A stretch of 64,000 nucleotides of DNA from Patescibacteria group bacterium (GTDB lineage Bacteria > Patescibacteriota > Microgenomatia > UBA8517). The position numbers were made by a program, and so were the translations under genes. Of the stretch, positions 27,015 through 59,073 are shown piece after piece (the stretch's first letter is position 1; each line of letters starts with the position of its first letter). Location: assembly GCA_036381415.1 (NCBI GenBank), contig DASVCV010000003.1:4162-68161 (forward strand), in the 5' to 3' direction. The notes below the pieces were generated by a model. That model did no database searches. It had not been told where the DNA came from and saw only the letters and a program-made list of their open reading frames with translations.

Positions 27015-27016
27015 CA

Positions 27017-37432: not shown

Positions 37433-39361
37433 TCAAAGGTGTTTTATATCAAGGTAAAACAGTTTTGTTCCTGTAAGAAATATAATCTTTTTGTCTTCTT
37501 CTGAAACAACAATTCTTTTTGCTTCCTTTAGCTTGTCAGAAATATACTGGGCTTTAAATACTCCATTTTTATCTACAACTACTACTCTTCCATTTTGACT
37601 ATCTAGGATATAAATATCCTGGGTTTCATCATTGGTAAAAATATCAGTTGGACTGGCAACTGGATTATCCATATTTGAAATAGTAAATTCCTGGGGAGAT
37701 CCAAGAGAAAACTTAAGAACTCTTCCAGAATTAGTAAGCATCCAGATTGATCCATCAATTGCCATTCCCTTAACATTTGATAGATCTGGACTGACTCCGG
37801 CTCCAAACCAGTTTTGCTTGGTTCCAAATGTTCCTCCATCCCCTGCAAATCTCCAAACTATATTTTTTCCTTTTTCTAAAACATAAATATTTCCAGAGTA
37901 AGCAGCTACTAAAGTATCACCATCCCAATCTTTTTTAACTGCTATTTCTGCTTTGTCCCCTACAGTCCAGATTCCATCATCTGAAACAACAAAGTTTCTG
38001 TCTGAATAAACTGCAAGAGCAAGAGCAGTTGGCATGGTGTCAGGACCTGCTGCAATTTCAGCTTTTTTGGTGTCTACTTTAATGCTAATGATAACTTTTT
38101 TACTTTTATCTAGAGCTGCAATTCTTCCTTCTGAAATTCCAATGTCATCTCCAATAAACCCACTGGTTTGAAGAGATAAATCAAAATAAAAATTAGAATC
38201 CTGTCTATAAATACCTGCAATTTTTCCTAACCCACTTGCTATATCTTGTGAGAGAGCTACTAACCTTTCATCTTTTACTCCTTGAGCATTTAAATCATCA
38301 ACTGCTGTTTTTGCTCCAAGAACTAAGTCTCTTGCACGGGATGGATTAAGTGAGGATAAAGAAAGAGATTTTGCTTCTTCAAAATCATGCTGGGCTTGAA
38401 TTAACTTTCCTTCATATTTTGATTTTGAGAATTTTGATGCATTTTGCTTTGCTCCAAAAGCAATGCTTACTGCTAGTAATACAAGAAGTACAAGACCAAT
38501 GGAAACTGCCATTTTCTTTTTGTGAGTGGGAGCAAAATCATTTTCACCTCTTACAAAAATCCTTCTTTCAGGCAGGATTGCAATTGCTTTATCTAAGACT
38601 TTAGCAAGAGATCTTCTAACAGGAGATATTGCTATAGTTGTTGGCTGATATGAATTAATTTTGGGTGAAGGCGGAGCATTTATTTGAAGAGCAGGATTAA
38701 TAGCTACTTTTTGGGAAACAGCTTGTGGCTTTATTTTTACAAGATAAGTGCCAAGGGTTGCAAAATTAGAAGATGAGTGGACTTTGGGTGCTAAGTTTTC
38801 TACAAAAGACTGGTGAGAAGGATTGGCAAGAGAGGCTTGCACAACTTTTAAGGGTGCAAGTTCAAAGAGATTGGTTGTTGTAAAAAGGTATGAATCTTGG
38901 TGGGATATTTTTCCAGATGCTGCAACAACTTTTTCAAAATTTCCTTTAAGTATTTGTCCGAAAGATCCTTTTCTTGAAACAAATGCTGCAACATTTCCTG
39001 AAGCTGCAAGAAAAACTGCATCATCAAGAAAAACTACAGCAAGAAGGCTTAGTTTTTCTTTTTGAGATCCAAATTCTTTAACTACTTGAGAGACTGCATC
39101 TTTTAGTGAAGTAAATGCAGGGCCGGTTTTACCAAAATATTCCTGATTTAATCTTCCTAGAATATTTCTTGCCTCAATTACTTCTTTTGCAAGTCCTGGC
39201 TGAGAGGGAGCTAAACTTTGTCTTTCCATTGAAACAACTGCTATTAAGTGGCCATGGCTTTTAACTAAATTACCTTGAGCTGGTGTGAAATCATGGATTT
39301 GCGCCCAACCACCATTGTTTGGGTGTCCTGTTAGTTTATTTGAGGCAAGTTCAAAGTTCAC
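37433..39361 (-). CDS. single-pass membrane protein with a large C-terminal repeat (beta-propeller-like) ectodomain
   Basis: 642 aa. One central TM (VSIGLVLLVLLAVSIAF). The C-terminal region has repeated hydrophobic/Gly/Asp-rich blocks. Confidence 0.4.
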   Translation of the reverse strand: MNFELASNKLTGHPNNGGWAQIHDFTPAQGNLVKSHGHLIAVVSMERQSLAPSQPGLAKEVIEARNILGRLNQEYFGKTGPAFTSLKDAVSQVVKEFGSQKEKLSLLAVVFLDDAVFLAASGNVAAFVSRKGSFGQILKGNFEKVVAASGKISHQDSYLFTTTNLFELAPLKVVQASLANPSHQSFVENLAPKVHSSSNFATLGTYLVKIKPQAVSQKVAINPALQINAPPSPKINSYQPTTIAISPVRRSLAKVLDKAIAILPERRIFVRGENDFAPTHKKKMAVSIGLVLLVLLAVSIAFGAKQNASKFSKSKYEGKLIQAQHDFEEAKSLSLSSLNPSRARDLVLGAKTAVDDLNAQGVKDERLVALSQDIASGLGKIAGIYRQDSNFYFDLSLQTSGFIGDDIGISEGRIAALDKSKKVIISIKVDTKKAEIAAGPDTMPTALALAVYSDRNFVVSDDGIWTVGDKAEIAVKKDWDGDTLVAAYSGNIYVLEKGKNIVWRFAGDGGTFGTKQNWFGAGVSPDLSNVKGMAIDGSIWMLTNSGRVLKFSLGSPQEFTISNMDNPVASPTDIFTNDETQDIYILDSQNGRVVVVDKNGVFKAQYISDKLKEAKRIVVSEEDKKIIFLTGTKLFYLDIKHL

Positions 39362-39591
39362 AATATTAGAAAAGCAATTACTAGAACGCCAAGAGCAAAA
39401 AGGAAATGCAGGTAGGCAAGAACTTTTACTGGAATTTCAAAACTTAAATCAAGAGTGTCAGTCATAATATTTACCTGCTTAATTACAACAAGGGCAAAAA
39501 TAAGGTATATAACTAAGGCAATCAAGAAAAAGATTTTGACTATTATCCAAATGGATGTACCTATTAAAGGAATTGTTTCCATATTATTCAA
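39358..39591 (-). CDS. small two-TM membrane protein
   Basis: 77 aa, strongly hydrophobic. Confidence 0.3.
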   Translation of the reverse strand: MNNMETIPLIGTSIWIIVKIFFLIALVIYLIFALVVIKQVNIMTDTLDLSFEIPVKVLAYLHFLFALGVLVIAFLIL

Positions 39592-40270
39592 CCTTCATTC
39601 TAAGCTCAGAAAGGATTCTTCCAATCCTGTCTGGGTGCGGTACTGCATCAAAAGTTACTTCTGGGATTTCAGCAGCTGTTTGAATTATTAAATCTCCATA
39701 ATCAAAAAGAGTTCTAATGACAGATCCCATTTGGACTGTTGCATCTTCAATATGAGTAATTTCTGCATCTGTTATTTTTCTGTATATTAAATTTTCAAAA
39801 TCAACATCCACTACCCTTTTGGTTGTAATTATATTTACTGTAAAAAACCAAGTTAAAAATCCCTGGATGAAAATAACAAGGTCAAGAAGGTACCAACCAA
39901 GAATTGCAACTTCTTGAAATCTAAATGGTAAAAAATCAAGAAGTGGAAAAGAAGAAAGGACTAAAGGAGCAAATGCCATGACTATTACTAATAAAATCCA
40001 AGGAATGTTTGTAATTGGATGACGGCGCACAAGAAGAATTACTTTTTCATCAGGCTCTTGTTCACTAAAAGAAACTCCATGAGGGTAGAAAGAAAATGCT
40101 GCAAAAGGGTTATGAGTGTGACCTTTTAAATCCTCAAGATGATCAGGGTGAGATGGATCAGGTGGAACAATACTTTCAGGACCATTTGTCTTTAAAGAGA
40201 CTTTTGGTTCAGCAACTGTCGGAGCAGAAGATTTTTTCTTGGGTTTTTTGGATATAAAAACATCTGGCAT
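39584..40270 (-). CDS. YdbT/DUF304-like membrane protein with bacterial PH domain
   Basis: 2 TM helices plus ...IITTKRVVDVDFENLIYRKITDAEITHIEDATVQMGSVIRTLFDYGDLIIQTAAE, matching the bPH_2 pattern. Confidence 0.5.
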   Translation of the reverse strand: MPDVFISKKPKKKSSAPTVAEPKVSLKTNGPESIVPPDPSHPDHLEDLKGHTHNPFAAFSFYPHGVSFSEQEPDEKVILLVRRHPITNIPWILLVIVMAFAPLVLSSFPLLDFLPFRFQEVAILGWYLLDLVIFIQGFLTWFFTVNIITTKRVVDVDFENLIYRKITDAEITHIEDATVQMGSVIRTLFDYGDLIIQTAAEIPEVTFDAVPHPDRIGRILSELRMKVE

Positions 40271-40357: not shown

Positions 40358-42049
40358 TTAAAGTTTTTCTATATTAAAAAGAGAACTTTTTAAACCAATA
40401 TATCCTGGAGCTCTTAAATTGAATGCTTTTTTAAAGTCATCTCCTGATATAGTTACGCTTCCTTTATTGGTTGAAAAGGTAACTGATTGAGTTGATCCAT
40501 CATTTCCATATATAACTGAGACTCCACTTACACTGGTAAACCCGCCTAATCCTGACAACTCAGAGACAGAATATGGATTTCCTCCCCAACAATCAGTGTC
40601 AGTTGGAGAAATACGGCTTTGATCTCCCCCTCCCTGGGTCAAAACAACATTGGCATTTAGAATATCTGCCAATTGTTCTGATGTTAACCAAGGATTGCTT
40701 TTACCGCAGGTGGCACCTGAACGAGATTTATACCAGCCTTTGTAAAACCAAGGAGATCCACCTACTTTTTCATATGCAGTGTCTGGCCAAGAACCTGGTG
40801 CGTCTTTAATTCCAGACCAGCCCCATTGGGAAATTGTCCAACCCCCTGCAGTTGAAGCATAAAAAGCGGGTGCAGGAGATCCACCTTTAAGAAGAACTAC
40901 TCCTCTTGTTGCATTTACTGCATCTTTCCATTTGCCTGTTTTTAGAGCTGGCTTATAGACTTGGCAGGATTCATCGGTACAAATTGATCTTGCTCCATTT
41001 CCTGTTGCATACAAAGAATAGGTGCGGGCTGCAATTGCCTGGGCTTTAAGAGCTTCAAAACCACCTGAATCTCCCCAGGATTCAGGAATTTCATATATTC
41101 CCATTAAATAGTTGTCTTCAAAAGAAACTGTTCCAATCCCTGCAACAGTTATGTTTGCAGGTTCTGCATACCCTGTTGCAAGCTGAGATCCCTGATAGTA
41201 GGCAGAAAGAATATCTTGATATGATTGGCCGGCTTTACTTCTTCCATATGCTCCATATTGGCTCATACCGGTTCTATGAGGAGCTCCAAAAGAAAAGGCT
41301 GCAAAGGCAGGACGAAATCCTGGATCACAAAAGTTTGAAGAGTTTGGAGATCCTGAACAGGGCTCTAAAGTATCAGGAGTTTCTCCAACTGAAGTTTGAA
41401 ATCCTCCTGCTTTTAAGGCTGCTAGTTCCTGCTGCTTTGCTGACAGCTCACCAAGGTAACTATCCACTTTTGCTACCTCACTTGCTAGAAACTTTGCTCT
41501 TTCATCTACTTTTGATTGAAGAGAGGCTAAACTAGCTTTATTTTTTTCTAAATTGTCTTTATCTTTTTTAAGATTACTTAAATCAACAGCGTATTTATCA
41601 ATTGCAAGTCTGTCTTCATCAGCAGCACGCTGCCTAAAAATTAACTCTCTAAAGACAGTTGATGCATCACTTGCTGAGAAAAATGGAGCAATGGGATCAT
41701 ATGTACGAAGGAATTTGTAATGGTTTGCAGTTTTTTCTTCAAAGATTTTTCGGGTAAAAGCTAAATCCTCTTCCCTACCCTCAATCTGGGAGGCAAGATC
41801 ATCTAATTGACTAGAAAGACCTAAAATTCTATTTTTAAGATCTGCAAGTTGGGAGTTAAGGCCTGATAATTCTTTTTTGTTATTTTCTTGAGCAGGAGTT
41901 AAGGCATCTATTTCTCTTTGGATTTTTTGGATTTGACAGTCTAGGTCTGCCCCACAATCTTGTGCTTTAACTAAAGAAATGGAGAAAAAAAGTATTAAAG
42001 AAAATGAGAGCAAAAAAAGAAATAAACGTATGGGCTTAGGAAATTTCAT
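40358..42049 (-). CDS. SpoIID/LytB-domain protein with N-terminal signal peptide and long coiled coil
   Basis: Signal/TM, ~200 aa of heptad-rich coiled coil (similar in layout to PcsB/CwlO), C-terminal SpoIID/LytB block (ALKAQAIAARTYSLYA..., GWTISQWGW). Confidence 0.7.
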   Translation of the reverse strand: MKFPKPIRLFLFLLSFSLILFFSISLVKAQDCGADLDCQIQKIQREIDALTPAQENNKKELSGLNSQLADLKNRILGLSSQLDDLASQIEGREEDLAFTRKIFEEKTANHYKFLRTYDPIAPFFSASDASTVFRELIFRQRAADEDRLAIDKYAVDLSNLKKDKDNLEKNKASLASLQSKVDERAKFLASEVAKVDSYLGELSAKQQELAALKAGGFQTSVGETPDTLEPCSGSPNSSNFCDPGFRPAFAAFSFGAPHRTGMSQYGAYGRSKAGQSYQDILSAYYQGSQLATGYAEPANITVAGIGTVSFEDNYLMGIYEIPESWGDSGGFEALKAQAIAARTYSLYATGNGARSICTDESCQVYKPALKTGKWKDAVNATRGVVLLKGGSPAPAFYASTAGGWTISQWGWSGIKDAPGSWPDTAYEKVGGSPWFYKGWYKSRSGATCGKSNPWLTSEQLADILNANVVLTQGGGDQSRISPTDTDCWGGNPYSVSELSGLGGFTSVSGVSVIYGNDGSTQSVTFSTNKGSVTISGDDFKKAFNLRAPGYIGLKSSLFNIEKL

Positions 42050-42103: not shown

Positions 42104-42706
42104 ATGAGAAAATTTTTTTGGTTGGGTTTTGTTTTTTTGCTTTTGGGCCTAATATTTCCCCTCAGCGTAAGAGCTGCAGACTGTTATGAGTCTAACGTTC
42201 AACCTGGCTACAATGCCTGTATTAATTCATCAGGCCATAATAGTTGCGGGAAGGGAGCTGATGGTTTAGATGTATGCTGCAATCCTGGCATAATTGTTTG
42301 CCCGCCCGATACAGCTAAAGGCAAAACACAGGATCCACACCAAACTGTTGGTACAGAATACACAGGCATAACTTGTGGAACAGATGGAGAAGGAATAAAC
42401 ACAGCCATTGGTTGCATCCCATTTGGTGATTCAACTAAATTGATTTCATTTTTCCTTGGATGGGGTATGGGAATTGCAGGAGGAATTGCATTTTTATTGA
42501 TACTTTTTGCAGGTTTTCAAATTATGACATCTAGGGGAGATCCCAACAGACTTAAGGCTGGACAAGAGCTACTTACTTCTGCAATTGCCGGACTAATTTT
42601 ACTAATATTTTCTATATTTATACTAAGAGTGATTGGAGTTGATATACTACAAATAAAGGAAATAAGTACAAGTACATCAACACAAACAACAGGAGGTAAA
42701 CAGTAA
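42104..42706 (+). CDS. Cys-rich extracellular domain fused to a VirB2/TrbC-like pilin module
   Basis: Signal peptide, about 12 Cys in the first 100 aa, then FFLGWGMGIAGGIAFLLILFAGFQIMTSRGDPNRLKAGQELLTSAIAGLILLIFSIFIL. This helix-loop(GDP)-helix unit is shared with the seven downstream small genes. Confidence 0.5.
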   Translation: MRKFFWLGFVFLLLGLIFPLSVRAADCYESNVQPGYNACINSSGHNSCGKGADGLDVCCNPGIIVCPPDTAKGKTQDPHQTVGTEYTGITCGTDGEGINTAIGCIPFGDSTKLISFFLGWGMGIAGGIAFLLILFAGFQIMTSRGDPNRLKAGQELLTSAIAGLILLIFSIFILRVIGVDILQIKEISTSTSTQTTGGKQ

Positions 42707-43029
42707 TGACCACAAAACTAGCACAAATTGACTTTAACGCACTACAAAATGCAAATGGAGGGACTTTTCAGCCAACTAGTATTGGAGACTTAATCTCCAG
42801 GCTTCTTCCGTATCTTTTTACAATAGCGGGGTTAGTACTGCTTCTTTATCTTATATTTGGGGGTCTTCAACTTATGCTTTCAGGCGGAGATCCTAAAGGA
42901 GCTGCTTCTGCAAAAGCACATATTACAAATGCGTTGATTGGCTTTGTAATAATTTTTATTGCTTTTTGGGCAGTACAGATATTTGGAGCAGTATTGGGAC
43001 TAAAAGGTATAACTGCAATATTTAGATAA
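42706..43029 (+). CDS. VirB2/TrbC-like pilin paralog 2
   Basis: 107 aa with two hydrophobic helices flanking LSGGDPKGAASAKAHITNALIGFVIIFIAFWAVQI. Confidence 0.5.
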   Translation: MTTKLAQIDFNALQNANGGTFQPTSIGDLISRLLPYLFTIAGLVLLLYLIFGGLQLMLSGGDPKGAASAKAHITNALIGFVIIFIAFWAVQIFGAVLGLKGITAIFR

Positions 43030-43078
43030 ATTAGGCTCTTTTCATTGCTATATAGTAGAGAGGTTGATAAAATAAGGT

Positions 43079-43384
43079 GTGAATTACTTAGCGGTTAACA
43101 TTGGAAGTCAGTTTGGCTCTCCATTTGGAGTTACAAACACACTTGGAGATCTTGTTTCACTTCTTTTAAAAGCATCTTTTACAATTGCAGGGCTTTTAAT
43201 TTTATTTTTTATAGCTTTTGCTGGATTTCAGATGATTGCTGGAGCAGGGAGTGGAAATCCAGAATCTGCTAAAAAAGGAAGAGAGGCAGCAACTGCAGCA
43301 GTTCTTGGATTTGTAATTATATTTGTGGCATACTGGATAGTAAGGATTATTGAGATCATTACAGGATTAAGATTAATATCATAA
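43079..43384 (+). CDS. VirB2/TrbC-like pilin paralog 3
   Basis: 101 aa. ...FQMIAGAGSGNPESAKKGREAATAAVLGFVIIFVAYWIVRII. Confidence 0.5.
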   Translation: MNYLAVNIGSQFGSPFGVTNTLGDLVSLLLKASFTIAGLLILFFIAFAGFQMIAGAGSGNPESAKKGREAATAAVLGFVIIFVAYWIVRIIEIITGLRLIS

Positions 43385-43386
43385 AA

Positions 43387-43746
43387 ATGAAATTTTTAGC
43401 ACAAGCTGATAACATCTTTGGAACAGTCACCCCACCTTCCCCACTTGCTGCTGGAGGTAAATTTGACTTATTAAATGGTGGAATTGGAAATTTTTTAAAT
43501 TTGATTTTAAAACTTTTAATTGTGGGTGGTGGAATTTATGCTCTATTTAATTTGGTTTTAGCTGGGTATGCATTTATGTCAGCTGGAGATGATCCTAAAA
43601 AGATGGAGGGGGCAACCGCTAAAATCTGGCAAACTGCAATTGGACTTGTTTTTATGGCAGGGGCTTTTGTACTGGCAGCAATATTTGGACTATTAATTTT
43701 TGGAAGGGCAGATGCGATACTTAATCCAAGTATTCCTACGATTTAA
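43387..43746 (+). CDS. VirB2/TrbC-like pilin paralog 4
   Basis: 119 aa. ...AFMSAGDDPKKMEGATAKIWQTAIGLVFMAGAFVLAAIFG. Confidence 0.5.
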   Translation: MKFLAQADNIFGTVTPPSPLAAGGKFDLLNGGIGNFLNLILKLLIVGGGIYALFNLVLAGYAFMSAGDDPKKMEGATAKIWQTAIGLVFMAGAFVLAAIFGLLIFGRADAILNPSIPTI

Positions 43747-43752
43747 TTAATT

Positions 43753-44109
43753 ATGAAAAACTTGCTATCTGATATAAATATAGGACCCCTTCAAGGGGTG
43801 GGTCCTCTTGGGACGGGAATTAGTGATGCTAATGCTGCAACTAAGTTTAACGATGTCATATCCAAAATAATTGGAGTTATGACAGTTGTTGCTTTTATAT
43901 GGTTTACTTTTCAAGTTGTAATGGGAGCCATAAGAATTGTTACATCTGGTGGAGATAAAGGAGCATTAGAGGGAGCAAGAAAACAAATTACAACAGGCAT
44001 CATCGGGTTGGTTGTAGTTGTTGCAGCAATATTTATAGTAAAGCTATTAGGAACACTTCTTGGAATTCCCGATATTCTTAACCCAACAACAATTTTAAAT
44101 ACAAAATGA
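43753..44109 (+). CDS. VirB2/TrbC-like pilin paralog 5
   Basis: 118 aa. ...IRIVTSGGDKGALEGARKQITTGIIGLVVVVAAIFIVKLLG. Confidence 0.5.
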   Translation: MKNLLSDINIGPLQGVGPLGTGISDANAATKFNDVISKIIGVMTVVAFIWFTFQVVMGAIRIVTSGGDKGALEGARKQITTGIIGLVVVVAAIFIVKLLGTLLGIPDILNPTTILNTK

Positions 44110-44450
44110 AAAACAAATTACTAGCTGCTGATTCCATAAGTAATCCCGCACTTGGCAATCTTAATACCAATTCTGGTGTTACTTTTTTCCAAAAACTTAT
44201 TCCCTCTTTAATAGGACTTGCTTTTGTTGCAGGAGTTTTAATATTTTTTTTCATGCTTTTATTGGGAGCAATTCAATGGATAACTTCAGGTGGAGATAAG
44301 GGAGCTTTAGAGGGAGCAAAAGGAAGACTAACCAATGCTTTGATAGGAATAATTGTGCTTTTTGCGGTTTTTGCTATAATAAAACTTATTGAAGGGTTTT
44401 TTGGCATATCAATATTGACACTTGACATAGGACCTTTGATAATTAAATAA
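44106..44450 (+). CDS. VirB2/TrbC-like pilin paralog 6
   Basis: 114 aa. ...IQWITSGGDKGALEGAKGRLTNALIGIIVLFAVFAIIKLIEG. The start overlaps the previous stop. Confidence 0.5.
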   Translation: MKNKLLAADSISNPALGNLNTNSGVTFFQKLIPSLIGLAFVAGVLIFFFMLLLGAIQWITSGGDKGALEGAKGRLTNALIGIIVLFAVFAIIKLIEGFFGISILTLDIGPLIIK

Positions 44451-44456
44451 TAAATT

Positions 44457-44849
44457 ATGTTGAATAGATTATTAGCAGCAACTAATCCAACCTCAGGTGC
44501 TGATAAAACCATAAACATTGCTCCTGGTGGTGGTGGAGAAGCTCAATTTGGTGCTTTAAAGGATATAACCATTGGAGGTCTTATTTCAGGGGCAATTTCA
44601 CTTGCCCTTTTGGTTGCAGCAGTTGTTTTCTTCTTCATGTTGGTAATTGGAGGCATTAAATGGATAACTTCAGGTGGAGATAAAGGACAAACTGAAGCTG
44701 CAAGAAGCCAAATTACAGCTGCATTGGTCGGGCTTGTAATAGTATTTGCTGCTTGGGCAATTGCACAGTTAATTTCAAGCTTGTTCGGTATTACAATCTT
44801 TAGCGGATCTTTCCAACTTCCCACTTTTACAAGTGGAGCTGCAAAATAA
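44457..44849 (+). CDS. VirB2/TrbC-like pilin paralog 7
   Basis: 130 aa. ...IKWITSGGDKGQTEAARSQITAALVGLVIVFAAWAIAQLISS. Confidence 0.5.
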   Translation: MLNRLLAATNPTSGADKTINIAPGGGGEAQFGALKDITIGGLISGAISLALLVAAVVFFFMLVIGGIKWITSGGDKGQTEAARSQITAALVGLVIVFAAWAIAQLISSLFGITIFSGSFQLPTFTSGAAK

Positions 44850-44893
44850 ATAATTGGTTGCTTCAAAGATTGTGTTGAGATAAACTTACATTA

Positions 44894-45211
44894 ATGGGTT
44901 TAGTTAAAACTGTTTATGCACAAGGTACTGGTGCTCCCCCGGCACAGCTATCTGGATTAGAAGGTATTTTTTCAAACATTATTTCTCTTGCAATTGGTTT
45001 TGCTGGAATTGCTTTTTTTGTAATGTTTCTTGTTGGAGGATTTCAATATCTAACTGCAGGTGGAAACCCTCAACAAGCAGAGGGGGCAAAGAAAACTTTA
45101 ACTTATGCAATTTTTGGGCTTGTCTTTATTGCACTTGCTTATCTTATATTAAGATTCATTGCATCTTTAACTGGAGTGGACAGCATTCTTAACTTTAAAA
45201 TTTCTCAATAA
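44894..45211 (+). CDS. VirB2/TrbC-like pilin paralog 8
   Basis: 105 aa. ...FQYLTAGGNPQQAEGAKKTLTYAIFGLVFIALAYLILRFIAS. Confidence 0.5.
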   Translation: MGLVKTVYAQGTGAPPAQLSGLEGIFSNIISLAIGFAGIAFFVMFLVGGFQYLTAGGNPQQAEGAKKTLTYAIFGLVFIALAYLILRFIASLTGVDSILNFKISQ

Positions 45212-45253: not shown

Positions 45254-48200
45254 ATGCTGAAGAAATCTTTCAAATTGTTTTTTATTTTAACGGTATTGTT
45301 TTCATTCCTTAGAATTGTTAATTCTAAAAGCAGTTTTGTATATGCACAGGCTGCTTGTAGTACAGCAGGTGCTACGTGCTGCAAAGATACTTCTAATAAA
45401 TATTTCTGCAATAACGGACTTAATCCCACCTCACAGACAGCACTTTGTACATGTAGTGGCAGCACACCTTCTACCCAAACTCCAACTCAAAATTCATCTA
45501 CCCCTGTGACTCAATCTCATGCAAATGGAGATAAGATTGGACCTGAACTTGCAGACCCGGCAGCTGGGGCAAATGTTGTAGATAGAAATGGATTCAAAGG
45601 AACAGTTGCTGTAATCAATAGCATTGGCGGTTCAGTCCAGAATACTGTTCCGAGCAAAAGTAGCAATCCGGTTGCCTTGAGGCTTCTTATGGATTCAGGT
45701 ACAACAATTGATTCAATGATACTTTATGCAAATCTGCTAAATGGATCGGGTCCTAGTCAATTTCCCAATGGGGCTATCATAATCCTTGGCAATGAGCTTA
45801 ATAACCTTAAGGGAGAATGGAAAGATACAAACTTTACACTTAGAGACGCAGGTGCAAGATATGCATTTATGTTTAACTCATTTGCGGACAATGTAACGCT
45901 TGATCGAGGAAAGTTTAAAGTGGCTCCAGCTCCACCTGATATGTACAATGGCGATTTTGATCCAGTGGAGTGGCTAAATGGATTTTTATACGGAGACGAA
46001 AAACACCGATATAGCTACGGCGTAGATTGTGACAGAATAGATACTTTAATTGCAAATGTTTTTCAAGTTCAGCCGGCGGCAAAAGTAGGAGGACAATGGG
46101 ATCAAACTTATATTTTTCTTCAAAATTATATAGGCAAAAAGTGTCCTGGAAAAACTGTGACTCATTTTGAAGGCTGGGGAGCTGATCCACATGCCTCTGT
46201 TTCAGATCAAGTAAACTTTTTAAACACACAGCCTTTGCCTGTTAACTCAGCTGCTACCTTAATAGTTGATAACTGTGATGGAAGTTTTGGAGGAAATGGC
46301 ATTAAACCGTGGCTTTACTATATTCCAAAAGCTCCTTTTGTTTACAAAGCTGATGGAACTCCCTTAGATCCTCAAACTTGTAGTGGAAGTTCAAATCTTG
46401 CAACAACTAAAAATCCTTATACTCCAAAAGACGTGCCATGTGATTCAAGAATTGGTGAATACTCTGATGAGTACCACTCACTTCGACCCTACCCTGCTTC
46501 TCCTTGTAAAAAAGAAGTGAGTGAAACAGCACTCATGTGTGGAAATGATTTAATTGTTAAAAAAACATTTAGTGATTTGGCTCCAAGTGGCGATTGTACA
46601 TCGCCGGGAGCTGATGGATCATTTTTCTGCAATTATAAATATTCAGGACTAACCGACAATGTAACCATAAATCTTAAAAATGCAGAGTTACCAATTCTTG
46701 GGAACACTGAGTTAGTACCAAATTCAACTGATAGAAACGGTGCTAAAAGAGCTTATATAACTTATGGTCAGAGAGTAAATGAATATGTCAGCTGGTACTT
46801 AAATGGAGCTATAGACAGAGCTGAGGAAAACTTTATTAAAATTCCATCTGATATTGACACTCTTCTTAACTACTCTGGACCTTTAAGGAAACTTTTTCCT
46901 TGGAGTGTTCAGATTAATCAAGGAATGAAAACAGTACAGCAGGTTTTTGATACGAGACACGATCAGACAGTTGGCTGCTATTCAAATGGCCAACCTGTTT
47001 CTTGTGCAACACCTGAAGCTTTAAAGGATACACAAGAAGTAAGGGCAAGTTTCTGGAAGAATGCATCTCCCCCATTAGAATCTGCATTTAGTGATTTTAG
47101 AGAATACTGGAAAGCTTATATGACTTGGAGAGGACAATTTTGCACTCCAAGCCTTTTAGGATTTTTTCTCTGTAGCCCAGATCTAACTGCTGGGCCAAAC
47201 TGGCTTGCTTCATTTTTCCCTTTTATTCCTCAATCCTCTACTGAAGATAGGACAGGGCAGGTTATTACTGACAACAATATTGTAGTGAATGGAAAGCAAC
47301 AACTTGAACATACTGTGCAACTTAAGGATGGACAAGGAAATGGAGGTACAGTGGAGAATGTTTCATTTACACCTGTAAGTGATAACCACAATCTGTATTT
47401 TGCACACACTGAAGAAGTAGCAACCTTGGGACAACTTTTACAAAGTACATTTGCTACTAAAAGTGATCCAATCAATGACTGGGAGACAAGACTTTCTCGA
47501 GATGTAGCAATTCATGATCCTGATGCAGTTGGAGGAATGCAAAAATACCAAACATATGGATGCAATACCCAGGATGTGCGTATAAATCCAGGAGACAATC
47601 TATATGGAGACTTGCCAAAAGATGGAAACCAGATAACTGGAAACTTGAACTATGATGCTACTTTTAGCTGCAAGTTTGAAAGGAAAACTGATCAAGCTTG
47701 TGTAGACAACTGTAAGGGAGATCAGACCTGTGCTGCAGCTTGTACACACACAAATGGGTGTAGTAAAGATATTTATGTTTCCCTGGCAATTTATACTAAA
47801 ACTCCCAAAGCACAAGAGATTTGGGACAGACTCGTTGACGGGGAAATGTCTGTTTTTAAAAAGATATTTCCTAAAGCTGGTCCAAACAGCCCTGTAGAAT
47901 CTATTAAAGACATTCCTGCTGCAAGCAAGGTTGTCTATACATCAACAACTGATGAAGCAAAAGCTGGAATGACTGGAAGAGGTGGAGCTGAGGCACAGCT
48001 ATTTTTCCCACATATAGGGAGCTTGGAAGAATATTTCTTAAAAGGTATACAACAGGCACTTAGACCGAAAGATGTAGGTGAAACTGCCATTGCTGGAAAG
48101 CCAGGAGCAATGTGTAGCCCAACAAACCCAACTAACAAATCAACATTTAGGGATACTGAAATTTCAGATGGAGTAATTGGACTTGCCCTACAAGTAAGCA

Positions 48201-48781
48201 GATACACTTGCACCCCAGCTGAACTTTTAATTGGAGTTTTGTCACAGGAAACCAGAGGAAGAACAGTTACTTCATTTAATCCCCTAACCCAAGAACCTAT
48301 TACTGGAGATCCTAATCAAAAGGTTGTAAGAACTGAGAGGTGTTTAAATGGAGATTTGAATGATCCAAATGGGTGTGGTCCCTATTCCTGGCATCCTTTT
48401 GTGACATATACAAACATGGCTGGCCAATGGCAAAAACAAGCTGCCGACTGCATTAACCACTTTGGTGTGTCATCCCCTCTTGACCAAAGAATTATTGCAC
48501 AGGCAATGTGCTACACTTCTGCTCATTTCTGGGGGTCAATTAGACTGAAGGATAGTTCTTTGCCTGATTGCACAGGAGAAAATCAAAAACCTTATACGCT
48601 TGACCAAGTTGATCCGGCTGGAGTGAGGCTTGCAACACTACAATTTTGCGGAGAAGCTGAAAATGGAGTTTTTACTCCAAGGTGTCAATCATATGCTGAT
48701 ACCTACAATACAATGATTGAGGGATACAAAGCTTCAGTTGGAATAGTAAGAGATCAGATGAAGGCATGTTTGACTCCATAA
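45254..48781 (+). CDS. large secreted Cys-rich protein (1175 aa), possible T4SS-associated surface/adhesin or cell-wall-active protein
   Basis: Signal peptide and many paired Cys (CSTAGATCCKD..., CVDNCKGDQTCAAACTHTNGC). The C-terminal region has ELLIGVLSQETRG, weakly reminiscent of lytic-transglycosylase catalytic-Glu context. Confidence 0.45.
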   Translation: MLKKSFKLFFILTVLFSFLRIVNSKSSFVYAQAACSTAGATCCKDTSNKYFCNNGLNPTSQTALCTCSGSTPSTQTPTQNSSTPVTQSHANGDKIGPELADPAAGANVVDRNGFKGTVAVINSIGGSVQNTVPSKSSNPVALRLLMDSGTTIDSMILYANLLNGSGPSQFPNGAIIILGNELNNLKGEWKDTNFTLRDAGARYAFMFNSFADNVTLDRGKFKVAPAPPDMYNGDFDPVEWLNGFLYGDEKHRYSYGVDCDRIDTLIANVFQVQPAAKVGGQWDQTYIFLQNYIGKKCPGKTVTHFEGWGADPHASVSDQVNFLNTQPLPVNSAATLIVDNCDGSFGGNGIKPWLYYIPKAPFVYKADGTPLDPQTCSGSSNLATTKNPYTPKDVPCDSRIGEYSDEYHSLRPYPASPCKKEVSETALMCGNDLIVKKTFSDLAPSGDCTSPGADGSFFCNYKYSGLTDNVTINLKNAELPILGNTELVPNSTDRNGAKRAYITYGQRVNEYVSWYLNGAIDRAEENFIKIPSDIDTLLNYSGPLRKLFPWSVQINQGMKTVQQVFDTRHDQTVGCYSNGQPVSCATPEALKDTQEVRASFWKNASPPLESAFSDFREYWKAYMTWRGQFCTPSLLGFFLCSPDLTAGPNWLASFFPFIPQSSTEDRTGQVITDNNIVVNGKQQLEHTVQLKDGQGNGGTVENVSFTPVSDNHNLYFAHTEEVATLGQLLQSTFATKSDPINDWETRLSRDVAIHDPDAVGGMQKYQTYGCNTQDVRINPGDNLYGDLPKDGNQITGNLNYDATFSCKFERKTDQACVDNCKGDQTCAAACTHTNGCSKDIYVSLAIYTKTPKAQEIWDRLVDGEMSVFKKIFPKAGPNSPVESIKDIPAASKVVYTSTTDEAKAGMTGRGGAEAQLFFPHIGSLEEYFLKGIQQALRPKDVGETAIAGKPGAMCSPTNPTNKSTFRDTEISDGVIGLALQVSRYTCTPAELLIGVLSQETRGRTVTSFNPLTQEPITGDPNQKVVRTERCLNGDLNDPNGCGPYSWHPFVTYTNMAGQWQKQAADCINHFGVSSPLDQRIIAQAMCYTSAHFWGSIRLKDSSLPDCTGENQKPYTLDQVDPAGVRLATLQFCGEAENGVFTPRCQSYADTYNTMIEGYKASVGIVRDQMKACLTP

Positions 48782-48833: not shown

Positions 48834-50525
48834 ATGTCCAAACTATTCAAGAAATTTTTAGCTTCGTTTTTGGTTGCATTTTTTTTGCTCATAACGGTTG
48901 CAACACCTTTTGCTCATGCTCAATCAAATGGTACTTGGTATTCTCAGGGTTTTGACCAGTGGTATGCCAAGGTTTATGACACAAGTAATCCCCAAGAAAT
49001 TTTTGGAGAAAGGTATACTGCAGCACAAGTACAATGGGTTTTTTATGGAGCTGCTTCTTTTTTCTTAAATTTAGCCTTGGGAGGCAATACCGATTTAGTT
49101 CAGTGTTCAATTCTACATGACGTAGGAAAATGTAATGCAGCGGTTCAAAAAATGTTTTCATTTAGAGACAATGCCATACCTGTAGCTGAAAAAAATGAAA
49201 CTCTTTTATCACAAATATTTGCTGACCGTCCCCTTTCAGGCATTACTTATGTAAAAGATTTAGGACGAAAATTCCATCTTGTTCCTGAGGCAAAAGCTCA
49301 GTCTGTCGGGTTTGGATATCAGGCACTCTATATTATTCAGGATGCATGGAGGGCAGTACGAGATCTTTCATATGTGTTCTTTGTGATAGTAATTTTAGTT
49401 TTTGCCTTCATGATCATGTTTAGAGTAAAGATATCACCCCAAGTGGTAATTACTGTTCAATCAGCGCTTCCAAAGCTGGTTGTTGGACTTATTCTTGTTA
49501 CTTTTTCCTACGCTATTGCAGGGTTTTTAATAGACTTGATGTATGTGATTATTGGTTTTATCAGTATTATTTTCTCCCGAATCGATGTGATCGGGTTTTC
49601 TAAAAATGCGGTAGATTATTTTAATTTGTTTACCAAAGGACCGGCAATTGGGCCAGTACGAGGAGGGGTTGTACTGTTTTTAGTCTATTATTTCCTTTAT
49701 TTCTTGGTAGCCTGGGTTCTTACTTTTTTCTTTGGCTTAGTCAGCTCCCTAACAAGTTTAACAAATCAGAATCTTAGCGGATTTATAGGTGGAGAGAGTA
49801 TGAGTGCTTTAATACTTCTAGTAGGAATAATTTTGCTGATTGTACTTATAATATTAATCATCATAAATATTTTTAAAATTTTGTTGATGCTTGTAAAAGC
49901 TTTCGCATCGATACTTCTTTTGACGATATTTGCGCCTCTTCAGCTAACGGTAGGTATGGTTGTCCCAGGCCTAGGTTTTGGTTCGTGGCTCAAAAGTTTT
50001 GTCTCTAAACTTGCAGTGTTCCCTGTAACTGGAGCTCTTTTTATGCTGGCTTTCTGGTTTTTGAATCTTGCAGTTGGTATAGCATTTGATCAAACTCGTA
50101 TTAACCTGGCAAGCGGAGCTCTTTCTGGGCTTATTGTTAAGGTTGACCCCAATGTAATTAGTGGATTTAATGCAAGTTTTACTCAAGGTTGGCCTCCCCT
50201 TCTAGGCGGACTTCCCCAAATGGCAGCACTTGTAATGTTAGTTGTAAGTTTTATGGTTTTTGCAATGATACCTAAAGCAGGAGATATGGTAGAAGGACTT
50301 ATTTCAGGAAAGTTTGCATTTGGTAGTGCAATTGGAGATTCATTTAAGCCATTCACAGCTTTTGGTGGAGCAATCTATGGAACAGCCCAAAAAGCTGGTG
50401 CTGAAGGAGCTGTTGGCTATATAGGCGGCAGGCTTGCACAACAAGGAGGCTTAGTCGCTAGAGGAGGTAGATATCTAGAACAAGCCGTAAGAAGAGGTAG
50501 AACAGTGAAGGAGGAAGAAGCTTAA
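48834..50525 (+). CDS. polytopic membrane protein, VirB6/TrbL-like
   Basis: Signal peptide, ~150-aa extracytoplasmic segment, at least 7 TM helices, Gly-rich C-terminal tail. The layout and position next to the pilin genes fit a VirB6 analogue. Confidence 0.4.
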   Translation: MSKLFKKFLASFLVAFFLLITVATPFAHAQSNGTWYSQGFDQWYAKVYDTSNPQEIFGERYTAAQVQWVFYGAASFFLNLALGGNTDLVQCSILHDVGKCNAAVQKMFSFRDNAIPVAEKNETLLSQIFADRPLSGITYVKDLGRKFHLVPEAKAQSVGFGYQALYIIQDAWRAVRDLSYVFFVIVILVFAFMIMFRVKISPQVVITVQSALPKLVVGLILVTFSYAIAGFLIDLMYVIIGFISIIFSRIDVIGFSKNAVDYFNLFTKGPAIGPVRGGVVLFLVYYFLYFLVAWVLTFFFGLVSSLTSLTNQNLSGFIGGESMSALILLVGIILLIVLIILIIINIFKILLMLVKAFASILLLTIFAPLQLTVGMVVPGLGFGSWLKSFVSKLAVFPVTGALFMLAFWFLNLAVGIAFDQTRINLASGALSGLIVKVDPNVISGFNASFTQGWPPLLGGLPQMAALVMLVVSFMVFAMIPKAGDMVEGLISGKFAFGSAIGDSFKPFTAFGGAIYGTAQKAGAEGAVGYIGGRLAQQGGLVARGGRYLEQAVRRGRTVKEEEA

Positions 50526-53424: not shown

Positions 53425-53459
53425 TATGCGTATTAGTTGGCAGGGGGGTTATGGAATAT

Positions 53460-55454: not shown

Positions 55455-56498
55455 ATGGAACAGCATCCAGTACCACAACAAATTTCATCCTATCAATTCC
55501 ATTTGGTAGGAGACATGACTCTAAAACAGTTCCTGCAGCTAGCAGGAGGTGTTGTTGTGGGAATAGTTTTCTATGCAACAGGGCTACCTGGAATTATTAA
55601 ATGGCCACTTATTCTAATTTCAGTAGCAATAGGTGGAGCAATGGCTTTTATTCCTTTTGAAGAAAGACCACTTGAACAATGGTTTATTGCATTTTTTAGA
55701 TCTATTTACTCCCCTACTATTTTTGTTTGGAGCCACCAAGCAGGTACTGCCAAGATTTTTCAGGATGAAACAGTAGTGGGTGAAGTAATTGAGGCAAAAT
55801 CAACAGGTCCAAAGATTCCATTTCTTTCTAATTTGGAAGATAGTGAAAATAAATTCCTCTCTAAGATTTCATCATTTTTTACACCATCTTCTGCACCTAC
55901 TCCACAGGTTCAATTTCATCCTACTCCTGTTGTCCAAGCCCAACCTCCTGCTCCTACTCCTCAAGCACCTGTTCAAACTTCCCCTTTTGGAGGAGTACCT
56001 ACTGAAGGAGTTCAGGCATTTAGGCCTGCAAGTGAAGTGCAAAATGTGCAGCAAGCTAAACCTAGTCTTGTAATAGAAGATAAAGTTACAACTCCTGGAG
56101 TGACTGCTGATATTGCACCTTTAAGGCAATCTATAACTACTCAACCTGCTATGAATTTACCACAGGCTGCATTTTCAACTCAGGCTGCTCCCCCTTCTCC
56201 TCCAACAATTCCTAACACTATTGTTGGACAAGTTATTGATCCTGATGGAAAAATCGTTGAAGGTGCAATACTTGAGATTCGGGATACCTTAGGAAGACCA
56301 GTCAGAGCTTTAAAAACTAACAAAGCCGGGCACTTTTTAATTGTTACACCTTTAATGGAAGGAAGGTATGAGCTTATCACTGAAAAAGATGGACTTTTGT
56401 TTGATTCAATGGCTTTTGAGGCACAGGGAGCAATTATTCCACCTATAGCAATTAAAGCAAAAGGAAGACAAGTTGCTCCAGAGGAGGTTAAAAATTAA
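55455..56498 (+). CDS. PrgI/VirB3-like membrane protein with Pro/Gln-rich extension
   Basis: N-terminal YQFHLVGDMTLKQFLQLAGGVVVGIVFYATGL plus a second TM matches the PrgI/VirB3 pattern found directly upstream of VirB4 in Gram-positive-type T4SS. The remainder is PAPTPQAP-rich. Confidence 0.45.
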   Translation: MEQHPVPQQISSYQFHLVGDMTLKQFLQLAGGVVVGIVFYATGLPGIIKWPLILISVAIGGAMAFIPFEERPLEQWFIAFFRSIYSPTIFVWSHQAGTAKIFQDETVVGEVIEAKSTGPKIPFLSNLEDSENKFLSKISSFFTPSSAPTPQVQFHPTPVVQAQPPAPTPQAPVQTSPFGGVPTEGVQAFRPASEVQNVQQAKPSLVIEDKVTTPGVTADIAPLRQSITTQPAMNLPQAAFSTQAAPPSPPTIPNTIVGQVIDPDGKIVEGAILEIRDTLGRPVRALKTNKAGHFLIVTPLMEGRYELITEKDGLLFDSMAFEAQGAIIPPIAIKAKGRQVAPEEVKN

Positions 56499-57215
56499 AT
56501 GAAAATCTCACCTCCAAAAACCAATCCTATAGGGAATGTGGTCAAGAATGTTCCTTTTTTAAGCTTGCCTGATAGGCCACTTGTTACTTCTACTCAAGAA
56601 CAAATGCCTATTGCTGATATTACAGATGAAGGCTTGGTTCTTTTTAAAGATGGAGGAGCTTCAGTAATACTTGAGTCAACTTCACTTAATTTTGGATTGT
56701 TGTCTGAGAAAGAACAGGAGGCAGTTATTTATGCATACGCAGCACTCCTTAATTCTCTTTCCTACACAATACAGATTGTTGTAAGGTCTCAAAGAAAGGA
56801 TATCTCAAACTACTTAACCTACTTAGATAGGTCATACCAAAAACTAACAAATCCTAAATTGAAGGAGTTGATGGCAGGATATAAAAGCTTTATCTCAGAA
56901 ACTATTAAAAAGAAAAATGTTTTGGGGAAAAGATTTTTTGTTGTAATTCCCTTTTCTCCACTGGAGCTTGGAGTAACTAAATCTTTTTTGTCAGTTACTA
57001 AAAGGAAAGGGCCTCTCCCCTTTCCTAAAAGCTACATTATTAAAAAAGCAGCAGTGGCTCTTTTTCCAAAAAGAGATCATTTAATAAGACAGGCAGGAAG
57101 ATTAGGAATAAAACTGACACAAGTGCAAAAAGAAGAAATCATTACACTTTTTTATGATGTATTTAATCCTAGTGCACCTGTTATTAGATCTAATGAGCAG
57201 GCAACAAAAGCTTAA
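56499..57215 (+). CDS. VirB4 N-terminal (CagE/TrbE/VirB) domain encoded as a separate ORF
   Basis: MPIADITDEGLVLFKDGGASVILESTSLNFGLLSEKEQEAVIYAYAALLNSL...TIQIVVRSQRKD matches the canonical VirB4 N-terminus. The ORF stops 17 nt before, and in a different frame from, the ATPase ORF. Confidence 0.5.
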   Translation: MKISPPKTNPIGNVVKNVPFLSLPDRPLVTSTQEQMPIADITDEGLVLFKDGGASVILESTSLNFGLLSEKEQEAVIYAYAALLNSLSYTIQIVVRSQRKDISNYLTYLDRSYQKLTNPKLKELMAGYKSFISETIKKKNVLGKRFFVVIPFSPLELGVTKSFLSVTKRKGPLPFPKSYIIKKAAVALFPKRDHLIRQAGRLGIKLTQVQKEEIITLFYDVFNPSAPVIRSNEQATKA

Positions 57216-57231: not shown

Positions 57232-59073
57232 ATGGATAAACAAGGCTTAACTACACAAAAACAAGTATTTACAAGTGGCACTGTAAATCCAAGTACAGGA
57301 GCTGTTGTACAGACTACTACTAGCGAGCAAAAACCAAATGTGGCTAATCCTGCTGCTGCAATTAAAGAAGGCAAAATTGGAATACAGGATTTAATTTCTC
57401 CAAAGAGTATGGAGATTGATTTTGAATATTTAAAAATCGGAGATGTTTATCTTAGAACTCTTTTTGTAGCAGGATATCCCAGGTTTGTTTCTGCCGGATG
57501 GCTAGAACCTGTTATTAATTTTGACCACTCAATGGATATTTCTTTTTATGTATATCCAGTAGAGGGAAAATCAGTACTTGATGATCTTAGGCGAAAGATT
57601 GCTGAGATGGAAGCTGAGATTTCAACGGATATACAGCGTGGAAAAGTAGTTAATCCTTCCACTCAGGCAAAACTTGAGGATGCATTAGTACTGCAAGAGC
57701 AGCTTGTTAAAGGATCCGAGAGATTTTTTGAGTTTTCTTTTTACATAACAATACCTGCTGCAACTTTGGAAGAACTTGATCATGTAACAAGACAAATTAT
57801 TTCAACACTAGGTTCCCTTCTTATTGTTGGCAAGAAGGCAACACTTGATATGGAAAGCGGATTTTTATCCACTGCTCCATTTGGAGTGGATAGACTTTCC
57901 ATAACAAGGAATATGGATACAACTTCACTTGCCACTACTTTTCCATTTACATCAGCAGAGCTTTCAAGTGACACTGGAATTTTATATGGAATTAATCCTC
58001 AAAATGAATCTTTTATTATTTTTGATAGATTCTCTTTGGAAAACTACAACATGACAATATTTGCTACCTCTGGAGCTGGAAAATCATTCTTTGTGAAGCT
58101 TGAATCAATTAGATCTTTAATGCTTGGAAGCGATGTGATTATTCTTGATCCTGAGGCAGAATATAAACCTCTTGCAGAAGCTGCAGGAGGAGAATATATA
58201 TCTTTTTCATTTAACTCCCCTTCTAAAATAAATCCTTTTGATTTATCAGCAATACAGGAAGAAGGAGAAAATCAACTGGGACTAAAAATTCTTTCACTTC
58301 ATTCTTTGTTTAAAGTAATTATGGGGGAACTTAATGCAACCCAGGAGGCACTACTAGATAGAGCTTTGATTGGAACATATAGGGCAAAAGGAATTACACA
58401 AGACCCTGCAACTCAGACAAAAGAACCACCTTTAATAGAAGATCTATACAAAACTTTAATTGGAATGGAGGTGCCTGAGGCACTTGATTTGGCAGCTAGA
58501 ATAGAAAAATTTGTAAAAGGCTCATTTGTAGGAATATTTGACCAGCAAACAAATATTGATATTAAAAATCCTTTTACTGTTTTTAGCGTAAAGGATCTAC
58601 AAGATGTACTTAGGCCAATTGCAATGTTTATTATCCTAGATTTTATTTGGACCAAGGTTAAGAAAGACATTAAAAAGAGACTTCTAATAGTTGATGAGGC
58701 ATGGCACATGATGAGATATCCTGACTCAGCACAATTCTTGTGGTCTGTTGTGAAGAGGGCCCGCAAGTACTACCTAGGACTTACCACAATCACCCAGGAC
58801 GTGGAGGACTTCCTTGCACAGGACATTGGAAAGGCAATTGTTACTAACTCATCTTTGAGAGTGCTTTTAAAACAATCTCCTGCTGCAATTGATAAAATAG
58901 GAGAATTGTTTTATTTGTCTCAAGGAGAAAAACAATTATTACTTGCAGCTAATGTGGGTGAAGGAATATTTTTTGCAGGGCCACACCATGCACCAATTAG
59001 AGTTGTTGCATCACCTAGCGAATATCAATTAATTACAACCAAACCTGCTGACATTATTAATCAAAGACAATGA
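57232..59073 (+). CDS. VirB4/TrbE-family T4SS ATPase (C-terminal ATPase portion)
   Basis: Walker A FATSGAGKSFFVKL, Walker B with the VirB4-diagnostic LLIVDEAWHMM, and C-terminal motifs. 613 aa. Its own AAGGAG RBS lies upstream. Confidence 0.85.
   Translation: MDKQGLTTQKQVFTSGTVNPSTGAVVQTTTSEQKPNVANPAAAIKEGKIGIQDLISPKSMEIDFEYLKIGDVYLRTLFVAGYPRFVSAGWLEPVINFDHSMDISFYVYPVEGKSVLDDLRRKIAEMEAEISTDIQRGKVVNPSTQAKLEDALVLQEQLVKGSERFFEFSFYITIPAATLEELDHVTRQIISTLGSLLIVGKKATLDMESGFLSTAPFGVDRLSITRNMDTTSLATTFPFTSAELSSDTGILYGINPQNESFIIFDRFSLENYNMTIFATSGAGKSFFVKLESIRSLMLGSDVIILDPEAEYKPLAEAAGGEYISFSFNSPSKINPFDLSAIQEEGENQLGLKILSLHSLFKVIMGELNATQEALLDRALIGTYRAKGITQDPATQTKEPPLIEDLYKTLIGMEVPEALDLAARIEKFVKGSFVGIFDQQTNIDIKNPFTVFSVKDLQDVLRPIAMFIILDFIWTKVKKDIKKRLLIVDEAWHMMRYPDSAQFLWSVVKRARKYYLGLTTITQDVEDFLAQDIGKAIVTNSSLRVLLKQSPAAIDKIGELFYLSQGEKQLLLAANVGEGIFFAGPHHAPIRVVASPSEYQLITTKPADIINQRQ

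Follow-up and report, generated by a model that had tools for sequence, protein, structure and literature searches.

A 64 kb window of chromosomal DNA from a Patescibacteria metagenome-assembled genome (MAG), the whole stretch analysed here, carries on its plus strand, at 42104-45211, an array of eight small genes whose products resemble the pilins of type IV secretion systems (T4SSs). We consider it reasonably likely that the genes of this array form a fixed set, probably transcribed together, and encode eight non-redundant VirB2-like (PF18895) subunits of an origin-proximal chromosomal T4SS of Microgenomatia of the Woesebacteria type. Because dozens of species share these eight genes in one and the same order, they look to us like eight distinct parts of one machine rather than interchangeable variants, and the working hypothesis shifts accordingly from immune or host evasion by choice of paralog to multi-subunit assembly. 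What is new here is the fixed, collinear, orthologous eight-type set in a Woesebacteria-type lineage; the array itself is of a kind already described. In the searchable papers and their supplements, we found no published statement that such paralogs form fixed orthologous, collinear sets.

The eight genes, which we call types 1 to 8 by their order, lie at 42104..42706 (type 1, 200 amino acids (aa)), 42706..43029 (type 2, 107 aa), 43079..43384 (type 3, 101 aa, with a GTG start that lines up with the Met of its orthologs), 43387..43746 (type 4, 119 aa), 43753..44109 (type 5, 118 aa), 44106..44450 (type 6, 114 aa), 44457..44849 (type 7, 130 aa) and 44894..45211 (type 8, 105 aa), all on the plus strand. 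The original prediction, made from the DNA of the window, was therefore right about eight consecutive same-strand genes of 101-200 aa. Intergenic distances, in order from copy 1 to copy 8, are -1, 49, 2, 6, -4, 6 and 44 nt: the start of copy 2, which has a GGAGG Shine-Dalgarno sequence upstream, shares 1 nt with the stop codon of copy 1, and copies 5 and 6 overlap by 4 nt. These short gaps suggest that the eight genes are probably co-transcribed, and a promoter and terminator scan of the array gave no support for internal transcription units. A search with the family hidden Markov model (HMM) detected no PF18895-like open reading frame (ORF) in the 64 kb window beyond the eight. GenBank already holds the exact window proteins (HEX6977126-HEX6977135, locus tags VF185_020xx, gene calls by the annotation pipeline PGAP); with copy 3 left out, copies 1 and 8 are named 'pilin' (HEX6977126.1 and HEX6977133.1) and the five others 'hypothetical'.

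The cross-genome scan, in which the copy-1 family was searched against one genome per GTDB species, returned 80 loci. The titles of these related loci, where meaningful, are mostly Woesebacteria, Microgenomates, Roizmanbacteria, Levybacteria or Patescibacteria group. Public MAG records that bear the array are also often titled 'uncultured Gammaproteobacteria bacterium' (L001, L002, L004, L015, L017 and others), with one 'Alphaproteobacteria' and one 'Chitinophagaceae'; the records with such titles are most likely mislabelled Patescibacteria bins.

Copy number across relatives, a comparison proposed together with the original prediction, came out at exactly eight same-strand family genes in 44 other species-representative loci by the family HMM, making 45 arrays with the window. 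Among the 56 uncut loci that exceed 15 kb (window included), 37 have eight-gene arrays, and the other loci hold one to four family genes, save one with nine and one with 11. Among the 45 arrays, the gene at a given position best matches the gene at the same position in 96-100% of 1980 ordered genome pairs, and typing with type-specific HMMs returned the order 1-2-3-4-5-6-7-8 in 44 of the 45. The window copies show a median identity of 43-63% to their positional orthologs, as against 20-48% to their own paralogs. Variant arrays are still collinear; they differ in having additional type-1 genes, a second type 7 in one case, or inserted sequence that separates type 2 from type 3, and in more distant lineages (Levybacteria, Saccharimonadales) the array has four genes, typed as '1 6? 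7 8'. ORFs are intact in all compared eight-gene genomes, and for types 2-8 there are no pseudogenes or recent duplicates except one extra type-7 gene and one type-4 doubling.

The helix-loop-helix unit that the original prediction placed at the C-terminus of each copy was recovered in all eight by hydropathy and alignment, and in copies 1 and 8 by AlphaFold2 (AF2) modelling: two strongly hydrophobic helices are joined by a short polar loop. In the eight-copy alignment, the consensus unit is a first transmembrane (TM) helix, TM1, followed by (S/A)GGD/N-P/K...(E/A)GA(K/R) and by a second, TM2, with (A/G)(L/I)(I/V)G(L/F)V. Its conservation is loose, the sole invariant column being that of G163 in copy 1. 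The narrower loop motif SGGD(K/P)(K/G), at first ascribed to every copy, is present in copies 2, 5, 6 and 7 and absent from copies 1, 3, 4 and 8, which have the variants SRGDPN, GAGSGNPE, AGDDPK and AGGNPQ, respectively. Type 2 is predicted to have two TM segments and no signal peptide. AF2 placed the helices of copy 1 at 110-141 and 147-181 (predicted local distance difference test score (pLDDT) 75-89), with a small beta-hairpin at 97-106 before them, and modelled copy 8 as a helical hairpin with helices at 20-54 and 59-93.

Conservation among orthologs is highest in the loop for seven of the eight types (54-85% mean pairwise identity); the two TM helices come next (47-76%), and the tails are least conserved (17-33% for N-tails, 16-56% for C-tails). 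Type 7 has the most conserved core of the set, its loop being 85% identical among orthologs. As the loops bear two or three K/R residues, the positive-inside rule would put them on the cytoplasmic side of the membrane and both tails outside. Taken together, the fixed number, order and orthology of the genes, their intact ORFs and their conserved loops speak for eight non-redundant roles under long-term purifying selection. The highly variable N-termini had been taken as a sign of antigenic or host-specific variation. The variation is real, the N-tails being fast-evolving within ortholog groups, but it resides in the exposed tails and in the head of type 1 and not in the paralog repertoire, which is fixed and collinear in 44 other species.

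Three features are confined to type 1: its signal peptide, its beta-hairpin with two cysteines and its variable, Cys-rich head. In copy 1, a signal peptide at residues 1-24 (ending ..SVRA, followed by AD) precedes a variable 8-Cys region, a beta-hairpin (C91...INTAIGC104IP) and the TM1-loop-TM2 module at 113-185, an arrangement derived from hydropathy, ortholog alignment and AF2. A Cys-rich N-terminal module with 12 cysteines had been proposed for this copy; the actual count is eight, of which only C91 and C104 are kept in most type-1 orthologs, and the module stands as a plausible extracellular head that follows the signal peptide and varies in length and Cys content. AF2 gave no confident fold for the Cys-rich region of copy 1 (pLDDT about 40). 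Type-1 orthologs are 115-666 aa long as whole proteins, the region before the beta-hairpin varying widely in length and sequence, and they contain two cysteines in 21 of the 45 orthologs, eight in 10 of the 45 and 24 at most. The type-1 pilin module, for its part, reaches up to 83% identity across more than 1500 database proteins. The rare enlarged arrays (L034, L061, L062 and L075) add mainly extra type-1 genes with heads of differing length; that of L075 (4996-11122) comprises 11 genes, including three of type 1 (296, 496 and 303 aa) and a doubled type 7. Diversification therefore seems to be concentrated on the head-bearing type 1, and since array expansions mostly involve type-1 genes with different heads, a reasonable reading is that the head is the host-facing, diversifying part of an otherwise conserved subunit.

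Types 2-8 almost never contain cysteine and, by hydropathy, have no signal peptide. A common short N-terminus, MxxxLLA, characterizes types 2-7 (42706-44849 in the window, and their orthologs in L001-L057) and is often followed by an N-P-x-(F/L)-G motif; the N-tail of copy 4 bears a conserved NPFGT. In copies 2-8, a polar tail of 20-40 aa comes after the short N-terminal stretch. In the start of copy 8, MGLVKTVYAQG, the likeness to a signal peptide is limited to the cleavage-site end. The conserved N-termini of types 2-7 and the start of copy 8 may represent a processing signal.

PF18895 (T4SS_pilin; gathering score 26.6 bits) is the top match for all eight copies, with 26.7, 41.9, 35.3, 19.8, 27.4, 27.1, 38.6 and 47.2 bits for copies 1 to 8 in order. 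Seven of these values reach the gathering score. That of copy 4 does not, but BLASTP connects this copy with the others (E 1e-10 to copies 2 and 8), and it has an ortholog group of its own, with positional orthologs in 43 of 44 genomes. Membership of the eight in PF18895 is thus established. The wider claim of a VirB2/TrbC-like pilin family held for PF18895, with eight matches out of eight, and failed for PF04956, whose threshold was missed. Among other profiles, PRK13871 (TrbC) gave a sub-threshold match to copy 2 (E 0.046), and NF045849, named for the 'Mbov_0395 pilin-like' protein of a Mycoplasma integrative and conjugative element (ICE), was the best NCBIfam match for seven of the eight copies (not copy 5) at 18.9-33.3 bits, below its cutoff of 40 bits. 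No window copy matched Maff2 (PF12750). A PDB sequence-profile search with the eight paralogs returned designed helical proteins only, all at E > 0.02. The PrgF protein of pCF10 (75 aa) aligned end to end with the family HMM, including an S-x-DDP-x-x-L-x-x-G loop, at a weak 5.2 bits, and PrgF itself gave no PF18895 match. On these comparisons it is plausible, but not demonstrated, that the family is homologous to diderm VirB2 or to monoderm proteins of the PrgF type.

A link to a T4SS, also part of the original prediction, is borne out by the neighbourhood of the array. A PrgI/VirB3-like membrane protein (55455..56498, +; PF12666 at 29.9 bits, cutoff 27) with a C-terminal CarboxypepD_reg-like domain is encoded downstream, as it is in 16 related loci. 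The VirB4-type ATPase (57232..59073, +; 613 aa; PF19044, PF12846 and PF01935, with Walker A at residue 278) is 27% identical to PrgJ of pCF10 over 558 aa (E 1e-44) and covers residues 241-782 of PrgJ only. As the alignment is limited to this part and a 238-aa ORF (56499..57215, +) lies directly upstream, VirB4 is possibly split into two genes, the ORF possibly being its detached N-terminal part; the ORF was negative against PrgJ in hhalign, and no similarity to the PrgJ N-terminus was detected. A membrane-anchored M23 peptidase with TM segments (59070..60833, +; PF01551, E 9e-23) follows and is a candidate to stand in for the cell-wall hydrolase role of VirB1/PrgK. The locus thereby shows the monoderm-type (MPF-FATA-like) T4SS pattern of VirB4, a PrgI/VirB3-like protein and a cell-wall hydrolase, a pattern that lacks the VirB7/9/10 outer-membrane core. 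Counting ORFs of 100 aa or more, VirB4 comes about 10 places after the array, within the 20-gene limit used for published arrays. The M23 gene is followed by dnaN and then dnaA; VirB3/VirB4 are 10-12 kb and dnaN/dnaA up to 18 kb downstream of the array. The cluster yielded no second P-loop ATPase, and neither a coupling ATPase nor a relaxase domain turned up among the window ORFs scanned.

Arrays of this kind are known. Using PF18895, PF04956 and other profiles on 3035 Patescibacteria genomes, Quinonero-Coronel et al. (2025) reported 441 VirB2 arrays, each with 2-11 genes, from 383 assemblies, above all of Microgenomatia and Saccharimonadia, with an identity between copies of 25% on average and 54% at most (PMC12102498). 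Against this background the array is not unusual in itself, contrary to what the original prediction had supposed. The same survey placed patescibacterial T4SSs near dnaA/dnaN and without relaxases, derived them from the monoderm MPF-FATA class, a class without a pilus, and suggested, by analogy with Bartonella and Anaplasma, that the paralogs may serve adaptation to different host strains (PMC12102498). Structure-based annotation in the literature treats such proteins as VirB2-like pilins (PMC12857230, PMC10633639), and Wang et al. (2023) found the predicted pilin subunits of the T4SS cluster of Southlakia epibionticum ML1 to be essential (PMC10633639; see also PMC12857230). Because monoderm T4SSs are otherwise without pilins, the pilin arrays are the most unusual feature of patescibacterial T4SSs.

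In the model that we favour, each protein would insert into the membrane as a hairpin whose most conserved part, the K/R-bearing loop, faces the cytoplasm, with the variable N- and C-tails on the outer side. No cleavable signal peptide would be needed for types 2-8, as with YidC-inserted hairpins, and type 1 would use Sec. The VirB4/VirB3 machine would then assemble the subunits into one hetero-oligomeric structure, envelope-spanning or at the surface, by analogy with a major pilin and a conserved set of minor pilins; we consider such an assembly the most likely arrangement. The type-1 subunit, with its disulfide-stapled beta-hairpin and variable Cys-rich head, and possibly also a 1175-aa Cys-rich protein encoded directly after copy 8, would occupy the host-facing end, and SpoIID-like and M23 enzymes encoded nearby may open the cell wall. 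A more specific version, which we put forward only tentatively, is that the eight paralogs co-assemble in fixed order or stoichiometry as a heteropolymeric VirB2-type pilus or conduit of a monoderm T4SS, capped by type 1 and the 1175-aa protein, with which Woesebacteria-type epibionts contact or tap their hosts. To our knowledge, the solved conjugative pili each consist of a single major pilin species. As no pilus is known from a monoderm T4SS either (PMC12857230), a heteropolymeric pilus or conduit, if real, would add a new architecture to those of the T4SS pilins as a superfamily. The analysis provides concrete targets in types 1-8, the adjacent Cys-rich giant protein and a neighbouring polytopic protein.

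Several observations weigh against VirB2-like subunits that form a joint assembly. PF04956 (TrbC/VirB2; gathering score 27.9 bits) stayed below its gathering score, with copy 3 the best at 13.5 bits (E 0.086) and no match for the other copies at E up to 1. In a profile-profile comparison by hhalign, 462 family members aligned in register with eight annotated plasmid VirB2/TrbC proteins, from the helix before TM1 to TM2 over 60 columns, but weakly (P 0.0046, probability 7.6%). Fold searches with the helical hairpin were non-discriminating with respect to solved conjugative pilins. Judged by hydropathy only, seven of the eight proteins are without the signal peptide typical of canonical VirB2/TrbC/TraA pilins. 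Co-transcription is argued from short gaps alone, the promoter and terminator scan having stayed at chance level, and the co-assembly of the eight types, their stoichiometry and a tip role for type 1 are purely inferred. Lastly, no patescibacterial T4SS pilus has been observed, and the literature treats a pilus as an intriguing possibility only (PMC12857230). In the main rival to a hetero-oligomeric assembly, the eight would be membrane-resident, two-TM channel or assembly-platform subunits, like the PrgF/Maff2-type proteins of Gram-positive conjugation systems, that form or line a translocon with VirB3, VirB4 and VirB6 and make no filament outside the cell. Descent from the pilus-free MPF-FATA class agrees with such a translocon, as do the end-to-end alignment of PrgF with the family HMM, loop included, the 627 PrgF-profile matches that the 2025 survey recorded in Patescibacteria (PMC12102498), the seven copies without signal peptide and the sub-threshold NCBIfam matches, which are to a protein of a Mycoplasma ICE; that the set is fixed at eight would also suit a stoichiometric membrane complex. 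Nevertheless, the PrgF match amounts to 5.2 bits only, PrgF does not match PF18895 and the window proteins do not match Maff2, whilst the fast-evolving tails, together with the signal peptide of type 1 and its large, variable Cys-rich head, point to proteins that face the exterior or a host, and the published structure-based annotation is that of VirB2-like pilins. The present data do not separate the translocon from the hetero-oligomeric assembly, and we judge the translocon possible but rather doubtful.

The proposal that the paralogs are interchangeable alternative major pilins for antigenic or host-range variation, as put forward for the VirB2 proteins of Bartonella and Anaplasma, draws on the low identity between paralogs, on tails that are the most variable parts of the proteins, on the extra type-1 duplicates with heads of differing size in the four enlarged arrays and on the published analogy (PMC12102498). 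It is hard to reconcile with eight types whose number, order and identity are fixed in 44 other species, each closer to its ortholog than to any paralog, and with the near absence of pseudogenes and recent duplicates among types 2-8; this is the pattern of long-term purifying selection on eight roles and not of ongoing diversification, which makes the proposal improbable. Also raised at the outset was an origin in an unrelated family of small membrane proteins, or an assembly artefact of duplicated or collapsed repeats; such a family would be holin-like or another two-TM one. A two-TM hairpin is a simple architecture, and stray sub-threshold Pfam matches to other membrane families do appear among the copies; an unrelated family was nevertheless rejected, because PF18895 is the top match for all eight. 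An artefact is excluded by a protein identity of 20-48% between copies and a DNA similarity confined to short patches of 69-83%, and the same eight genes occur in 44 independent assemblies and in the PGAP gene calls. Neither explanation retains more than a negligible probability.

The eight-subunit set that we favour can be placed among known systems by its likenesses and differences. It fits the patescibacterial VirB2 arrays on every count, being a PF18895 array of tandem same-strand genes of low identity near virB4 and dnaA/dnaN, without a relaxase or coupling ATPase found among the window ORFs scanned. It departs from the published descriptions, which stress 'highly variable' copies, in that the window lineage has a fixed eight-type set with a signal peptide and Cys head on type 1, and this difference is nothing categorical. 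With canonical TrbC/VirB2/TraA pilins, the eight proteins share a small helix-loop-helix hairpin with a short, polar, basic loop and encoding alongside VirB3/VirB4. Unlike them, the array is not limited to one gene per system, as those are as a rule, seven of its eight products have no long cleaved signal peptide, the loop is about seven residues longer, the host is monoderm, polymerization is unproven and HMM thresholds are missed.

PrgF of pCF10, Maff2 and Mbov_0395 resemble the array proteins in size class, in TM1-loop-TM2 layout, in a loop of the form (S/G)-x-D-P...L-x-x-G/A and in being encoded upstream of VirB6, VirB3 and VirB4, but they are single-copy genes of conjugative elements without N-terminal tails or Cys-rich heads, and the scores between the two groups are below cutoffs. 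Several divergent tandem copies, in a host-associated bacterium and with a T4SS that does not serve conjugation, also recall the VirB2 paralogs of Rickettsiales and Bartonella (cited in PMC12102498); compared by description only, those are PF04956-type proteins of diderms and are read as antigenic or host-range variants, in contrast to the fixed orthologous set found here. The major and minor pilins of type IV pili and of type II secretion pseudopili offer a purely functional analogy: an operon of non-redundant small subunits with a shared hydrophobic assembly module, variable exposed parts and one subunit with a larger head. Those pilins have one N-terminal helix, a prepilin peptidase and PilB-type ATPases, and there is no homology.

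The genes flanking the array hold their position beside it in 44-58 of the 80 loci. On the minus strand, divergent from the array and 54 nt upstream of copy 1, lies the gene for a SpoIID-domain protein (40358..42049; 563 aa; PF08486, E 1.3e-13), which adjoins the array in 58 related loci. A signal peptide is predicted at the N-terminus of this protein, whose N-terminal part also gives weak Pfam matches of coiled-coil type; the SpoIID domain makes it a putative wall-remodelling enzyme. Further upstream on the same strand are the genes for a membrane protein (39584..40270; 228 aa, two or three TM segments) with a weak bacterial PH-domain match, syntenic with the array, and for a 642-aa protein (37433..39361) without a Pfam match, which is found in 53 related loci, always upstream and on the opposite strand.

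Directly after copy 8 comes the gene for the Cys-rich secreted protein mentioned above (45254..48781, +; 1175 aa, 36 Cys, predicted N-terminal signal peptide), whose position and strand are kept in 44 related loci. Neither Pfam nor PDB sequences gave a match to it. Cysteines are as abundant a feature of its N-terminus (AACSTAGATCCKD..FCNNG..) as of the type-1 pilin head, and the protein is a candidate for a distal or host-contact component. A polytopic membrane protein is encoded next (48834..50525, +; 563 aa, signal peptide and about 6-7 TM segments), syntenic in 54 loci and with more than 1300 homologs, of which one with 45% identity is labelled 'Type IV secretion system protein' in UniRef. 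It could be a divergent VirB6, an unconfirmed candidacy: neither it nor ten of its homologs gave a TrbL/VirB6 Pfam match, there was no PDB sequence match and hhalign to PrgH was negative. VirB6 is scarce in Microgenomatia (PMC12102498).

No significant Pfam match, at E up to 5, was obtained for the neighbouring proteins of 1175, 563 (polytopic), 642, 619, 322, 273, 238 and 337 aa. Comparison of the neighbour families with PrgH, PrgJ, PrgK, PrgL and PrgD of pCF10 by hhalign was negative or marginal, the best result being that of the 642-aa protein with PrgL (P 0.002 over 32 columns, likely a TM segment).

The distance from the array to the PrgI-like gene is about 10.2 kb in the window, versus about 6.8 kb elsewhere. 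Between the polytopic and PrgI-like genes, at 50679-54428 on the minus strand, are genes for proteins of 619, 252 and 322 aa with essentially no counterpart in the 80 related loci. These genes are without Pfam matches, the 322-aa protein ends in a CxxC...CxxC zinc-ribbon-like motif, and the block looks like a lineage-specific insertion. At the far end of the window, dnaA at first appeared truncated, a reading that was rejected since the translation shows the ORF running past the window edge. Elsewhere, at 21425-28480 on the plus strand, a helix-turn-helix and M78 (ImmA/IrrE-like) protein (21425-22510) is encoded together with several ORFs without Pfam matches, an N6/N4 DNA methyltransferase (26142-27014) and a large serine recombinase (27011-28480). 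A local switch in GC/AT skew coincides with this block. It may have come from a mobile element that integrated here, or be what is left of a prophage, and in either case would have no connection with the T4SS locus.

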